Assembly: GCA_019057385.1 (NCBI GenBank)
Contig: JAHQJS010000007.1
Span: 448,001 to 512,000 of the forward strand
From: Candidatus Borrarchaeum weybense
Lineage (GTDB): Archaea; Asgardarchaeota; Sifarchaeia; Borrarchaeales; Borrarchaeaceae
Reading direction: 5' to 3'
DNA length: 64,000 bases
In this document: positions 10,656-16,218 of the stretch, in pieces
Layout: every line of letters begins with the position of its first letter
Numbering within the stretch: position 1 is the first letter of the stretch
Position numbers and translations under genes: made by a program
The notes under the pieces: model-generated
What the model was told of the DNA's origin: nothing
What the model saw: the letters and a program-made list of their open reading frames with translations, nothing else
Database searches by the model: none

Positions 10656-12125
10656 GTGATTATAATGAAACACAGTCGTATAATTTACAGGATATCTTGC
10701 CTATTTATTATCATTGGATTGATGCTATGTTCATGCACAGTCCATGCTGTGTTCTCAATAGATGGTTCGCAATCCAATTCTACATCGATAATTTCAAATG
10801 ACGTAAGCGATCACCCTAAAAGCTCCACAACTGTGTCATCAATTAAATTCTGTTCTTATGTTAAGGGAACTGGTAGTTATACAGAGGTTGACGATGCTAT
10901 CTTTACACCAAATGGTCGGTTGTTTATTTACTTTGAAATCTATGATGCTTTTCGACATCAAATTACAACTACTATTACTGTAACAGCCCCAGATGGTTCA
11001 ATCTATCTTGAGGAAACAGAAAAAGAAAGTCCACTTTTTTATACTTATGCAAAGTGGTGGGAAAAAGAAATTGATAGCTTTGACTTTAATGGGGAATATC
11101 GAGTACAAATTCAAGTTACTGACAGAACTAAAAACCAAAACTTCATTGAAACAGGATCCTTTTTTGTTCGTGATGCTGCACCTTTAATTGCAATAACTAT
11201 GGAAGATCTTCCTGTGCAAATGGGCATAGGTACTTATCAGAGAATAAAAGTTAATCTCTATAACTTGGATCCGAGCTTCGTTGGAACGTCTACTATAACT
11301 GTTCGTCTGTCAGGTTCTGCTTTTGGTTTTCCTGATGGCAATGCAAGAGCCATCACATTGGGACCCAATGAGCGCCGTGATATTTATTTCACTGTTATTC
11401 CAAATAGTTTTGGAATAAAAACCCTTCGTGTTGAAATTCTGTTTAAAGAAAATGTGATTTCATATGAGGATTACTCCATTTCAGTTACCGTTGGGTACAT
11501 ATATGCAATTCCAATTGCAGCTATTATTGGAATCATTTTAATCTTCTTCTTTAAAAGATCGAAGCCACAGATTCAAATTACTGAGATGAAAAGTAGTGTT
11601 ATCTCGTCTATAGACGAATCTGATGAACAAGATGTCATAAAAGATGACATTCTACCGAGAGATATTTCTAAAGAAATTACAGAACCTTCACCTACTGAAA
11701 CGATATTACTTAACAGAGAAATGCTCTCAAAGTCTCCTATAGATCATCAATATGAAGATTCTAATACAAAAAAATATTTTGAGTTAGATACAACAGCAAA
11801 GGACACACATAAGAAACTTGTTAAATCATTAATTAAGCATAAGAAGGAAGCAGAAGGTATCAAGCTCCCTAAAATAGAAAAAGAAATTCTGAAGAAAGAA
11901 ATTCTATGTGCAAATTGTGGTAATTTAATGCCTGAAGGTACGTCAATCTGTCCCGCATGCCAGTCGGATCAGATTTCATGCCCTATTTGCTTAAGACCTA
12001 TTATTTTTGGTGAGACGATAATCAAATGTTCTTATTGTGGAGTTTTTTCTCACGAAGATCATTACATTCAATGGGTAGCTACAAAAGGATATTGCCCTAA
12101 ATGTAAAACAAAAATAAGGGGTTAA
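10656..12125 (+). CDS. Single-pass membrane protein: signal peptide, Ig-like ectodomain, TM helix, cytoplasmic zinc ribbon plus RING-like domain (putative E3 ligase)
   Basis: Hydrophobic N-terminus; beta-rich CARDB-like ectodomain (ITLGPNERRDIYFTV); TM YIYAIPIAAIIGIILIFFF followed by KRSK; CANC..CPAC, then C-x2-C-x12-C-x2-C-x4-H-x2-H-x3-W-x6-C-P-x-C. Confidence 0.8.
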   Translation: MIIMKHSRIIYRISCLFIIIGLMLCSCTVHAVFSIDGSQSNSTSIISNDVSDHPKSSTTVSSIKFCSYVKGTGSYTEVDDAIFTPNGRLFIYFEIYDAFRHQITTTITVTAPDGSIYLEETEKESPLFYTYAKWWEKEIDSFDFNGEYRVQIQVTDRTKNQNFIETGSFFVRDAAPLIAITMEDLPVQMGIGTYQRIKVNLYNLDPSFVGTSTITVRLSGSAFGFPDGNARAITLGPNERRDIYFTVIPNSFGIKTLRVEILFKENVISYEDYSISVTVGYIYAIPIAAIIGIILIFFFKRSKPQIQITEMKSSVISSIDESDEQDVIKDDILPRDISKEITEPSPTETILLNREMLSKSPIDHQYEDSNTKKYFELDTTAKDTHKKLVKSLIKHKKEAEGIKLPKIEKEILKKEILCANCGNLMPEGTSICPACQSDQISCPICLRPIIFGETIIKCSYCGVFSHEDHYIQWVATKGYCPKCKTKIRG

Positions 12126-12144: not shown

Positions 12145-15100
12145 CTAGTCGCTTTTAAAGAATGTTAGTTGCAAATGTTTTTCTTCTTTACTCCAAATAA
12201 ATGTTCCATCGATTTCTAGTCTCTGAAGTAGTACTAAGCGAAAAATCAACTTCAGTATGGATTCTCTTGAGAAATTATACTTACTAGTAAGTATTTCAAC
12301 TGTTGATTGTACACCGTTACAATTCAATTCTTTCAAAAGACTTTCAGTAGAGTTTACAACAGTGTTTAAGGCAGTTTTGTTAAGATTCAAACAATCACAA
12401 AGCGCAACAAAAGCTTCTTCAAATTTTTCTGCATCTATTAGAGCTCTTCCTTTTAATAGAGCTTTCTCAATTTCTCCAGAATACTCTTTAGAGATATTAA
12501 ATTTCAGAATGTCAAAATCTTTTAGGATTTCCTGTATACGAGCAGTTGTTTGCTGGGAATTTTTATAGAGATCTTTTAAGAAGAGTAATGCGTGTTCATC
12601 AATTTCTTCTTTACCATCCGCACTTTTTCTTTGATTAATGATCTCTTCATACTGTTCCTTCACAAGAGCATTTTCTAATTCAGAAAACAGTGACTCTTGA
12701 GCTTCTAATTGTGTTTCTAAATCAAGAGTTTGTGACAACGTAGGTGACTTTTCGATAAATCTTTTAATATACTCCACTGATTTTTGTATCGCTTTTATTG
12801 TCTCTTTTGCGTCCTTCTGAATCATAAGTCTTTTCTGTATTTCCTTGTAGCCCTCGACGAATTCTTTTTCGTCTTTTAACATTTCAAATTGTTTTGTCGC
12901 ATTATTATAGTATTTCTCAGCCTTTTGTATTGCGAAAATTGTAGCATAATCGCTCGCTAAATCTAAATTTTTAGAAATTTCATTGATCTGTGATAATATC
13001 TTTTCTTTCAAAGGATCATTAAGTGCAATTTTTGATAAGTATTCATCCTCAATTGCTTGGATTTCTTCAATCTCTTTGATTACTGAATCCATTAAGTTAT
13101 TTCTTTTCTCAGAAATGAGTTTAATTCTGTTTTCTAGATTTGTTAACCTTTTTTCTATTGATTTATAGCGTATGAGTTTCTCAATGACTGGTGAATAGTT
13201 TATTTGTTCAATATGTGTCTGTAAACTTAACAATTTATCTTGAAACAAATTCAACAACTGGCCTGGCAAATCTTTTTTTATTCTTTCAATTTCTTCAAGA
13301 AGCATAGTCTTTTTCGCTTCAGGTTGAACATCATGGTAATAAGGTCTCGGGATCTGTTCATCTCTAATTATTACTCCTTTTCCTTCCATGAGTTGAAGCA
13401 AATATGCTACGTTTGTAGAACGTGAAGGGACACAAAAGAAATTACGACTGAGTTCAGAGATGCCTAGCGCTCCTTCGCTTTCAGCTAATAGATTATAAAG
13501 CTTGTCTTCCCACACTGTGCTTGTTTTAAATCGAAACTTTTCATTAATGTTCTCCAAGAGACCCATTTGAACAAGGTTTTCAATCCATTGTTTGCATGCC
13601 TTCTTATCAACCGTTATTTTTTTGGCATCTTCTAATTCAAACAAATCAGTCAGAAAGTTATTTGCTAGTTTGCCAATTTCTTGGCCCATTTTTTTTCCAA
13701 TCCATAAGTTTGGAAGGATTAGACCAATCTTTTTCAAATCTTCAATCATTCTTGCAGAAGACATGGCAATTTTAAGACGATCCTCTAATTCTTGTACGAC
13801 TTCTTTCTTTACATCTGCTGTTAAGCCTTTACTATTAAGTTTCATTATATGATGAAATGTTTGATCATCTAGTTCTCTTACTAATAGCAAACGACTAATC
13901 GGAACTTCTCGATATGTTTTTCTGTATTGATCTGAAATAACCGGCCCTCTAGAAAGAATAAATGTGAAGTCTGATTTCCTTTCCGTCATAGCGTCAAGTA
14001 TTTTAAGTTTATTAAATTTTAAAGAAAGCATCGTTGATTTTATGCTTTCCTTTGAAAGATTAACACAAATCAATACCTTTGAGCTAATACTTGGATTCTC
14101 TTTTGTACTAAATTCGAGAGAGAACACTGCTTTGCTATCATCAAGAGTAGAAACTTTGCCAAAATTAACTGATCCAAATATAGTCTGGAAATAATTCTTA
14201 AAACTTGATATTGCAGCTTCAATAGATACTTCTGGTTCAAGTATGACTGAAGATTCATCCTTCTGGAGCTCTACAGTAGTTAATATTGGTTGTTTCTTTC
14301 TTTTTGATACTTCTTCAAATTTTATCCCACTTCGTATGAATTGACGTTTCACTACTCCTTCTGTTATCTCCTGAATCTTCTCTAAAGCGGCTTTGTAAAT
14401 TAGAATTTGACAAGCTTTGAGTACTCGTCTTGAGTTGCCTTTCAAACTCTCATGAATGAAATGAATTGCATCATCTGAAAATGGATAACATCCTTCAATT
14501 TCTGCAGTTCGTGTGCTTGATAAATAGGAAAGAATCAATTGTTGAGTATCATCTGCAGAAATAAGAGGCGGGACTTCTATATGATATAAGAACCGCTCAG
14601 GCAACGCTTTTTGAAATCTAGATACTGCATATTGCCAGGCTTGAGGAGAAACTGACAAAGTAATCATAAACGGAATGTGGTGAATTTCAGTTCCTTTGTG
14701 ATAGATGCGCCCTATATTATCCAAGAACTCACGAAAGTCGTGTAATCGTGCCTCACGCTTCTCTAACCCTATAACAAGCAGTTCTTGTTCAACTTCATCA
14801 AATGCTAAATGAATGAAGTTATATTTTAGACGCTCGACTAGATTCTTACCAACTAAATTCAGAATCATTGTTTTTCTAAGAAGTTCGTTATTAATATTAG
14901 AAATAAAGCCTGATTTTGTTACTTCTTTGATTATTTTTTCAGTGATTTCTTTATCCGAGGGGTCTACAATATTTGGTAAGTTTTCTAAAATTTGAGTTAG
15001 CTGATCTTTGAAAGATCCTTTAAATACATGCCGTAGTCCAAGTCCTTTGATTTCAGCAGGAAAACCCTCAGCATCGTAGTTTAAATTGCCTTCTCGTAAT

Positions 15101-15321
15101 TCTTGATTAAATTTCATTAGTAATGTTGTCTTACCAACACCAAAATCTCCATGAAGTGCTAAGGCTCCTGGTTTTCCATGTAAAGAAACATTTATTGCAA
15201 GATCCTTTAAAGCAGACATTGCCCCTTTTTGGGCTGTCGTCAAAGTAAAAATATTTGATAATCCACTGGGAAGAATAGGAAAAGGATTTTCATTTAGATA
15301 AAATATTTTGTAGGGATTAAT
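12145..15321 (-). CDS. Large AAA+/ExeA-like P-loop ATPase with winged-helix and coiled-coil regions
   Basis: Walker A GDFGVGKT, Walker B HLAFDEVE, Arg-finger-like ALPERF, lid YPFSDDAI..GNSRRVLKAC, wHTH-like GISELSRNF..YLLQLMEGKGVI, long C-terminal coiled coil. The ORF track starts at TTG 15243, but the frame is open to ATT 15321 (INPYKIFYLNENPFP) with a GGGGGG SD. Confidence 0.8.
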   Translation of the reverse strand: MNPYKIFYLNENPFPILPSGLSNIFTLTTAQKGAMSALKDLAINVSLHGKPGALALHGDFGVGKTTLLMKFNQELREGNLNYDAEGFPAEIKGLGLRHVFKGSFKDQLTQILENLPNIVDPSDKEITEKIIKEVTKSGFISNINNELLRKTMILNLVGKNLVERLKYNFIHLAFDEVEQELLVIGLEKREARLHDFREFLDNIGRIYHKGTEIHHIPFMITLSVSPQAWQYAVSRFQKALPERFLYHIEVPPLISADDTQQLILSYLSSTRTAEIEGCYPFSDDAIHFIHESLKGNSRRVLKACQILIYKAALEKIQEITEGVVKRQFIRSGIKFEEVSKRKKQPILTTVELQKDESSVILEPEVSIEAAISSFKNYFQTIFGSVNFGKVSTLDDSKAVFSLEFSTKENPSISSKVLICVNLSKESIKSTMLSLKFNKLKILDAMTERKSDFTFILSRGPVISDQYRKTYREVPISRLLLVRELDDQTFHHIMKLNSKGLTADVKKEVVQELEDRLKIAMSSARMIEDLKKIGLILPNLWIGKKMGQEIGKLANNFLTDLFELEDAKKITVDKKACKQWIENLVQMGLLENINEKFRFKTSTVWEDKLYNLLAESEGALGISELSRNFFCVPSRSTNVAYLLQLMEGKGVIIRDEQIPRPYYHDVQPEAKKTMLLEEIERIKKDLPGQLLNLFQDKLLSLQTHIEQINYSPVIEKLIRYKSIEKRLTNLENRIKLISEKRNNLMDSVIKEIEEIQAIEDEYLSKIALNDPLKEKILSQINEISKNLDLASDYATIFAIQKAEKYYNNATKQFEMLKDEKEFVEGYKEIQKRLMIQKDAKETIKAIQKSVEYIKRFIEKSPTLSQTLDLETQLEAQESLFSELENALVKEQYEEIINQRKSADGKEEIDEHALLFLKDLYKNSQQTTARIQEILKDFDILKFNISKEYSGEIEKALLKGRALIDAEKFEEAFVALCDCLNLNKTALNTVVNSTESLLKELNCNGVQSTVEILTSKYNFSRESILKLIFRLVLLQRLEIDGTFIWSKEEKHLQLTFFKSD

Positions 15322-15636: not shown

Positions 15637-16218
15637 TTATCTATCAATCATCAGCGAGTCTCTCACTTTACTTTCCCTAATTTTAGCTTTATTCTTTTGT
15701 GCTTGTTCTACTAGCATATTATTTAGTGTTCTAAAAATAAATTCTACATTTTCCCCTGTTTTTGCTGATGCTTCGAAAAATGGACAGTCTATTTCCTTTG
15801 CTATCTTTTCTCCTTCTTTCGAAGAAATTATCCTTGCTTCCTCTAAATCCGATTTATTTCCAACCAGTATGATAGGTATCCCTGCGCTGTGCTTTTTCAC
15901 TTCTTGATACCATTTTTTGACATTCTTGAATGATCCCTCATTTGTAATATCATAGACTATTAACGCACCTCGAGCTCCTTGAAAATAATGAGAACGTATA
16001 TTTGTAAAACGTTCTTGTCCCCCAGTATCCCAAATAAATAACCTCGTCTGGATATCTTCAATAGTGTACCTCTTGATCCTAAAATCAACTCCGATTGTAA
16101 CTTTATAATTTTCAACAAAGACTTTTGTAGTACATCTTAAACTAAGTGCAGTTTTTCCAACGCTTCCATCGCCTACAATGATTACTTTGAAAATATAGCT
16201 CATCGGATACTTTTCCAC
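15637..16218 (-). CDS. Rab-like small GTPase (Ras superfamily)
   Basis: G1 GDGSVGKT, G2 TIGVDF, G3 WDTGGQE, G4 NKSD, G5 SAK; RabF-like IGVDF, RLFIW, RFTNIR, YFQGA, IVYDIT; no C-terminal Cys. Confidence 0.95.
   Translation of the reverse strand: MEKYPMSYIFKVIIVGDGSVGKTALSLRCTTKVFVENYKVTIGVDFRIKRYTIEDIQTRLFIWDTGGQERFTNIRSHYFQGARGALIVYDITNEGSFKNVKKWYQEVKKHSAGIPIILVGNKSDLEEARIISSKEGEKIAKEIDCPFFEASAKTGENVEFIFRTLNNMLVEQAQKNKAKIRESKVRDSLMIDR

Follow-up and report, generated by a model that had tools for sequence, protein, structure and literature searches.

A candidate membrane-anchored RING ubiquitin ligase with a receptor-like layout in an Asgard archaeon

Results

Gene and protein layout

Within a 64,000-nucleotide stretch of the genome of the Asgard archaeon Candidatus Borrarchaeum weybense (contig JAHQJS010000007.1, positions 448,001 to 512,000 of the forward strand; called the window from here on), we analysed an open reading frame (ORF) at positions 10656..12125 of the plus strand, whose product has the layout of a cell-surface receptor and ends in a zinc ribbon and a RING finger. 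The ORF, referred to here as the RING gene, is real and holds 489 codons counted from a GTG, with the stop codon at 12123-12125. Because a 486-aa database copy with 100% identity and the orthologues begin with MKHSR, that is, at M4 of the GTG-start ORF, the true start is probably the ATG at 10665, which gives a protein of 486 aa; residue numbers given here follow the GTG. As judged from the orthologue alignment, the gene is under purifying selection, with 63-69% invariant columns in the second extracellular domain, the helix ahead of the ribbon, the ribbon itself and the RING, and 10% in the cytoplasmic linker. Sequencing runs that a search listed were of sediment DNA only, with none of RNA.

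The original prediction for this locus had described a receptor-like type I membrane protein with a signal peptide, one transmembrane (TM) helix followed by a basic stop-transfer, a charged linker, a zinc ribbon and a cytoplasmic RING, and this outline was recovered in full. The predicted signal peptide (residues 1-31, 10656..10748) has a basic n-region, a hydrophobic core and a V-H-A motif. In a hydropathy scan the hydrophobic stretch covers residues 9-33, with K/R before it and V-H-A, then V-F, after it (the -3/-1 signal-peptidase pattern); the cleavage-type motif is VHA or AQA in the orthologues, and AlphaFold2 (AF2) models residues 2-25 as a helix. A lipobox was considered and rejected, the residue preceding C25 being Leu. 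A Ser/Thr-rich low-complexity stretch follows (residues 32-60, 10749..10835; predicted local distance difference test, pLDDT, below 35), and then two domains modelled as extracellular beta-sandwiches, an Ig-like domain 1 (residues ~61-175, 10836..11180; AF2 strands 88-171) and a membrane-proximal domain 2 (residues ~176-278, 11181..11489; AF2 strands 177-282). The TM helix (residues 279-299; hydropathy up to 2.58; AF2 helix 285-301) and the stop-transfer K300-R-S-K303 together occupy 11490..11564. On the putatively cytoplasmic side lie an acidic, Ser/Thr-rich linker (residues 304-362, 11565..11741; isoelectric point, pI, 4.4; pLDDT ~25) and a basic helical segment (residues 363-416, 11742..11903; pI 9.2; helix 379-398; 63% invariant columns), which leads into the C4 zinc ribbon (11904..11963) and the RING (11979..12107).

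A type I single-pass topology with the zinc-binding tail in the cytoplasm is supported by hydropathy, charge and the model. The distribution of Cys is uneven, with one in the ectodomain against ten in the tail, and the positive charges flanking the TM helix lie on its inner side. The full-length AF2 model is poor (mean pLDDT 49) and was used for domain boundaries and a cautious fold search only.

The C-terminal zinc ribbon and RING

The ribbon is spaced C418-x2-C421-x10-C432-x2-C435 and the RING C442-x2-C-x12-C-x2-C-x4-H-x2-H-x3-W-x6-C-P-x-C483 (nt 11979-12104), a C4-H2-C2 variant with the ligands C442, C445, C458, C461, H466, H469, C480 and C483. Both elements are present, the RING with the spacing originally claimed. 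Of the limits first given for the RING, the end at 12104 holds, whereas the start at 11907 is in fact the first Cys of the ribbon. None of the 12 zinc ligands varies among the orthologues, nor do W473 and P481, in agreement with the earlier statement that the Trp and the CPxC are retained.

That the tail is a true RING is supported by profile comparison and by its predicted cross-brace fold. With Pfam zf-RING_2 (PF13639; cut-off 27.3 bits), residues 400-489 by themselves score 29.6 bits and the full protein 23.3 bits, while the genome scan gave 28.7 bits. A family profile of the tail, A2, built from 56 sequences, matches the solved RING-H2 ligases RNF126 (E 8.5e-8), RNF4, RNF24, EL5, Arkadia, RNF165, Hrd1 and gp78, and also reaches ZNRF3 (E 3.8e-4) and RNF13 (E 3.3e-3); its RING part (positions 35-83) further matches, at E 1.2e-5, a small archaeal protein of 72 aa that is associated with the ribosome (PDB 9fhl chain a, 'aS34'). 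In the profile alignments canonical counterparts are found for C1, C2, H5, C7 and C8, H469 stands in for C6, and a C-x2-C knuckle replaces C-x-H, so that the fourth ligand comes two residues before the canonical C3 and not after it. When AF2 was given the family alignment, residues 405-489 were modelled with a pLDDT of 88.9, with strands at 11-13 and 20-22 in the ribbon, and the predicted RING superposed on RING-H2 ligases: on RNF165 bound to UbcH5b~Ub (5ulk_C) with a root-mean-square deviation (rmsd) of 1.0 Å over 46 residues (TM-score 0.83 by target), on RNF24 with 1.9 Å over 53 residues and on EL5 with 2.2 Å over 52.

The residues by which a RING contacts the ubiquitin-conjugating enzyme (E2) are present. 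In the small RING ubiquitin ligase (E3) of Caldiarchaeum, mutating I30, W58 and R69 impaired ubiquitylation (PMC5654768). Their equivalents here are I444, near-invariant among orthologues, and W473 and K484, both invariant; with P481 they make up the full set of a hydrophobic residue at C1+2 (I444), the helix Trp (W473), the Pro after C7 (P481) and the basic linchpin after C8 (K484).

The ubiquitin system of the host

A search of the host genome (4.18 Mb, 8 contigs) returned four UQ_con, four ubiquitin-like and four ThiF matches. [quoted passage not shown] There are two E1/E2 pairs. A ubiquitin-ESCRT cluster at C4:124201-128987 (C4 and C5 are other contigs of the assembly) holds genes for a small RING protein of 127 aa, a pro-ubiquitin of 98 aa that ends GG-NI and is encoded at C4:124607-124903, the JAB deubiquitinase, a Vps23-like protein with UEV and coiled coil, and Vps28. 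An E2 and E1 pair lies at C4:215510-217105, with E1 at C4:216071-217105, and a second cluster of E2, E1 and ubiquitin-like genes at C4:696320-701813, with its E2 at C4:696320-696856; another E2 is encoded at C4:598198-598662. When the tail was modelled in complex with the E2 of the first pair (C4:215510-215971), the prediction scored 0.01 against a mark of 0.32; it was run without controls and is counted for neither side.

In a motif scan over all ORFs of the genome, the exact RING variant was found in three proteins only, namely the product of the RING gene, a 387-aa paralogue and the small RING protein (C4:124201-124584), whose gene stands directly upstream of the ubiquitin gene. The tail aligns with this small RING at a BLASTP E of 8e-10, a computational demonstration of kinship between the tail RING and the RING of the ubiquitin operon. 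In vitro, UEV-Vps23 is ubiquitinated by a Helarchaeia RING E3 whose gene cluster also encodes ESCRT components, E1, E2 and pro-ubiquitin (bioRxiv 10.1101/2023.07.25.550441). The 387-aa paralogue (C5:229320-230483) is the best match of the genome to the ribbon and RING tandem, at 90 bits, and is itself laid out as a type I protein, with a predicted signal peptide, an ectodomain of ~170 aa, a TM helix with SRRK after it, a helical linker and a complete ribbon and RING. Separately, a 370-aa multi-pass membrane protein with a long Ser/Thr-rich linker (C4:694379-695491) adjoins the second E2/E1/ubiquitin-like cluster and carries a weaker RING-like finger, with E 1e-6 against a hidden Markov model (HMM) of the tandem.

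A ribbon and RING cassette across Asgard archaea

The tail was searched exhaustively against 1.84 billion representatives at a threshold of E 1e-3, and 470 cluster representatives matched; outside the protein's own cluster, essentially residues ~400-489 alone align. The shared unit is a cassette in which a C4 ribbon stands directly before a C-terminal C4-H2-C2 RING with HxxH(L)xxW and CPxC, as is the case here, and the family has no dedicated Pfam model. The strict motif of ribbon and C4-H2-C2 RING occurs in 129 of the top 149 of the 470 representatives, and at least one TM or hydrophobic segment lies upstream of the tail in 89 of these 149. In many of the 149 a hydrophobic segment at the N-terminus is followed by a long middle region and by a TM segment immediately ahead of the tail; others are multi-pass or soluble. 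Freyarchaeota, Lokiarchaeia and Heimdallarchaeota are the sources of the named members. Elsewhere in the family the tail is joined to propellers, Ig repeats, DUF2341, multi-pass membrane domains or soluble scaffolds.

Against an HMM derived from 126 members, the protein scores 84 bits over positions 2-72. The members of this set were filtered on the Cys, His and Trp positions, so that the invariance of these residues within it is not independent, the independent figure being the 129 of 149 given above. At the position of I444 the set has V, I or L in 124 members, and at that of P481, which lay outside the filter, Pro in 125.

Among 121 sampled Asgard genomes the tail profile was positive in 88, with 1-32 copies each. 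Judged by this spread and the 470 representatives, the cassette is widespread in Asgard archaea. E2 (UQ_con) is present in 89 of the same 121 genomes, the disagreement being confined to a single genome; the module occurs in none of the 32 genomes that have no E2, which belong mostly to families f7, f16 and f19.

The ectodomain

The ectodomain had been described as Ig/CARDB-like with N-x-S/T sites. Its Ig-like character stands, on the basis of an AF2 model of middling quality (pLDDT 60-76 within the domains) and generic Ig-like fold matches with Z ~10.7 (for domain 1, Z 10.7 with rmsd 2.8 Å over 99 residues). Pfam gave CARDB no backing: with E up to 1 there was no match to CARDB (PF07705) and, on residues 30-290, none to PA, the best match being Big_3_4 at E 0.012, and Pfam yielded no other family for the ectodomain. 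The only lead toward CARDB comes from a language-model match (score 0.82) to a cluster with CARDB in 40% of its members, and an Atlas feature search with the ectodomain returned scores of 0.84 or less throughout. As for the glycosylation sites, there is a single sequon, N41-S-T, which sits in the low-complexity stretch and is missing from four of the eight full-length orthologues; N-glycosylation as a notable feature was accordingly rejected.

The most conserved part of the ectodomain is domain 2, with 69% invariant columns among orthologues. Full-length relatives number only ~10, with 72-100% identity, and two of them are labelled as Promethearchaeota metagenome-assembled genomes. In the host genome neither blastp nor phmmer found an ectodomain paralogue, and no sequence kinship to the giant neighbouring protein described below was seen. 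By these sequence comparisons the ectodomain is a lineage-specific orphan of narrow distribution.

Gene neighbourhood

The RING gene is divergent from a coiled-coil gene and convergent with a minus-strand gene at 12145-15243, 19 bp from its stop, whose 1032-aa product is a STAND/AAA-like P-loop ATPase with weak NACHT/AAA_16 matches. Beyond this ATPase, 3.5 kb from the RING gene, lies a Rab-like GTPase (15637-16218, minus strand; Ras family, E 1e-56). In the other direction, at 4.5 kb and with two genes between, a giant Ig-repeat surface protein is encoded on the minus strand from 6120 to position 1 and on, outside the window, to C7:443459. The claim that the RING gene is located next to these two genes is thus a loose one, both being kilobases away on the other strand with genes in between, and since they are encoded on the opposite strand the RING gene is monocistronic.

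The giant protein, 3553 aa long in the genome, closes with a TM helix, TPR-like helices over ~190 aa, a zinc ribbon, a degenerate RING, in which the second His is replaced by Leu and the Trp by Tyr, and a winged-helix-like tail of ~90 aa. As it too ends in a ribbon and RING, two cassette proteins are encoded within 5 kb. The six-gene order of giant protein, 742-745-aa helical protein, coiled-coil protein, RING gene, ~1050-aa ATPase and Rab-like GTPase is shared by two relatives with 72-76% identity. The 1032-aa ATPase turned up in only 2 of the 201 Asgard genomes sampled and the synteny is among close relatives; the block is thus restricted to the genus, and little about function can be read from its conservation.

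Discussion

We consider it likely that the protein is a membrane-anchored RING ubiquitin E3. This reading draws on what the computational analysis has established of its layout, topology, RING homology and fold, on the conservation of the E2 contacts, on the complete ubiquitin toolkit of the host and on the kinship with the operon RING. In the mechanism that we propose, the signal peptide would be cleaved, the two Ig-like domains would face outward and one helix would span the membrane, while the acidic flexible linker and the conserved basic helix would lead to a cytoplasmic ribbon and RING module holding three zinc ions. The RING would dock a host E2~ubiquitin conjugate via I444, W473 and P481, the linchpin K484 would activate it, and lysines of membrane-proximal proteins would be ubiquitinated. 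Possible targets include the protein itself, partners of the ectodomain or the TM region, and partners of the conserved helix. We thereby infer E2 binding, ligase activity and substrates, as well as any coupling to ectodomain binding or ESCRT sorting.

By sequence comparison the RING belongs with the archaeal small RING E3s and the tail with the Asgard ribbon and RING cassette. The hydrophobic residue, the Trp and the basic linchpin of the small RING E3s, such as srfp of Caldiarchaeum subterraneum (PMC5654768) and the RING of the Asgard cluster (bioRxiv 10.1101/2023.07.25.550441), are present here, and the 127-aa small RING of the host has the same order of C-x2-C ... C-x2-C-x4-H-x2-H-x3-W-x6-C-P-x-C. 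The small RINGs differ in that they are soluble, measure ~100-130 aa, have no preceding ribbon and are encoded in the ubiquitin operon, whereas the present protein is a 486-aa type I membrane protein with ectodomain, TM helix and ribbon and is encoded elsewhere. It shares its tail with the cassette family, but its ectodomain is unique to ~10 close relatives with 72-88% identity.

The layout of a signal peptide, an extracellular domain, one TM helix and a cytoplasmic RING toward the C-terminus recalls the PA-TM-RING ligases (RNF13, GRAIL/RNF128) and RNF43/ZNRF3, which the original prediction had brought into play. Unlike them, the protein has neither a PA nor a ZNRF3-type ectodomain, being modelled with two Ig-like sandwiches; its ligand order is C4-H2-C2 in contrast to their C3-H2-C3, and an extra ribbon precedes the RING. 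Since RNF126, RNF24 and EL5 score higher against the tail profile, nothing indicates direct descent from the PA-TM-RING or ZNRF3 ligases. The protein is not a member of either family and the resemblance is architectural only.

Several observations weigh against a ligase. On the full-length protein zf-RING_2 reaches only 23.3 bits, under its cut-off, the ligand order is non-canonical with a C-x2-C pair in place of C-x-H, and the linchpin is K or R in only 71 of the 126 family members (56%). The co-occurrence of module and E2 fits a ubiquitin-linked function, but it is counted as supportive only, because the phyletic match is partly built in, the module search also detecting the small RINGs of the operons, and because it rests on few independent lineages, those without both being few and related. 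Moreover, the closest solved look-alikes of the whole tandem are the C-terminal domains of subunits of GATOR2 and of intraflagellar transport complex A (IFT-A). The tail might thus be an assembly module with no ligase activity that tethers the surface protein to a scaffold in the cytoplasm or to further cassette proteins such as the giant neighbour. The top ranks of a Foldseek search with the whole module are taken by GATOR2 (WDR59/WDR24/MIOS), the SEA complex and IFT-A (IFT144/IFT122), with E 1e-4 to 1e-3, TM-scores by query of 0.5-0.62 and, for IFT-A, rmsd values of 3.3-4.0 Å, and with WDR19/IFT144 the match of the A2 profile extends over both ribbon and RING (E 1.8e-6, positions 9-88). The C-termini of GATOR2/SEACAT (WDR24, WDR59, MIOS; Sea2-4) and IFT-A (IFT144/WDR19, IFT122) have the ribbon and RING in tandem and in the same order as here, and these zinc domains serve mainly in complex assembly. 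The tail is present in three membrane proteins of the genome; two of these are encoded 4.5 kb from each other, and the degenerate RING of the giant one looks ill-suited to catalysis. Nevertheless, the GATOR2 and IFT-A subunits are coat-like proteins of beta-propeller and alpha-solenoid, neither of which is present here, and they are not membrane proteins. In the alignment WDR19 has lost the second Cys, both His and the Trp, whereas the present family keeps all eight RING ligands together with the Ile/Val, Trp and Pro that active RING-H2 ligases have, and among the 121 genomes the module was never found where E2 is absent. An assembly role in place of ligase activity therefore seems rather unlikely to us, and the two roles are in any case compatible.

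Still less probable, and in our estimate very unlikely, is that the tail is a generic zinc-finger output domain of DZR/TackOD1 type, binding nucleic acid, lipid or a small ligand with no link to ubiquitin. TackOD1 has been described as an output domain whose function is unknown and which contains five CxxC motifs and a single HxxC motif (PMC5847659). The model for it (PF18551) scores 25.7 bits on the tail against a cut-off of 32, and DZR scores 26.8 bits against 27.3. Because these matches are sub-threshold, and that to TackOD1 only partial (profile positions 74-135 of 188), a role of this kind is the less likely one; moreover, on the tail both are outscored by the RING model, and the predicted structure lies within 1-2 Å of RING-H2 ligases. 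The Trp, Pro and hydrophobic residue that are conserved here correspond to those at the E2 interface, and the RING of the ubiquitin operon has the same variant.

A more specific version of the E3 reading would make the protein a receptor-type ligase, in which binding of the ectodomain to a partner cell, to the surface layer or glycan coat, or to the giant neighbour controls the RING, and surface proteins are tagged for Vps23-UEV and ESCRT. We regard this coupling as doubtful at present, well below the likelihood that we give to membrane-anchored ligase activity as such.

Ubiquitin-dependent sorting of membrane proteins is a hallmark of eukaryotes. RING fingers are already among the listed eukaryotic signature proteins of Asgard archaea (PMC11291895), and E3 activity of soluble archaeal RING proteins has been published (PMC5654768; bioRxiv 10.1101/2023.07.25.550441). 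The literature that we searched did not describe RING proteins of Asgard archaea that are membrane-anchored and receptor-like, and searches for Prok-RING found nothing. The present member, with its orphan ectodomain and narrow distribution, adds little beyond the cassette family to which its tail belongs. If the tails of this family are active, Asgard cells would already have had E3s sited at the membrane, their topology matching that of RNF13, GRAIL and ZNRF3, and the link between ubiquitin and ESCRT would gain a plausible source of membrane cargo, which is testable in vitro with the E1, E2 and ubiquitin of the host. Should the receptor-type reading be true as well, these proteins would represent a prokaryotic forerunner of the ubiquitin-dependent turnover or shedding of membrane proteins.

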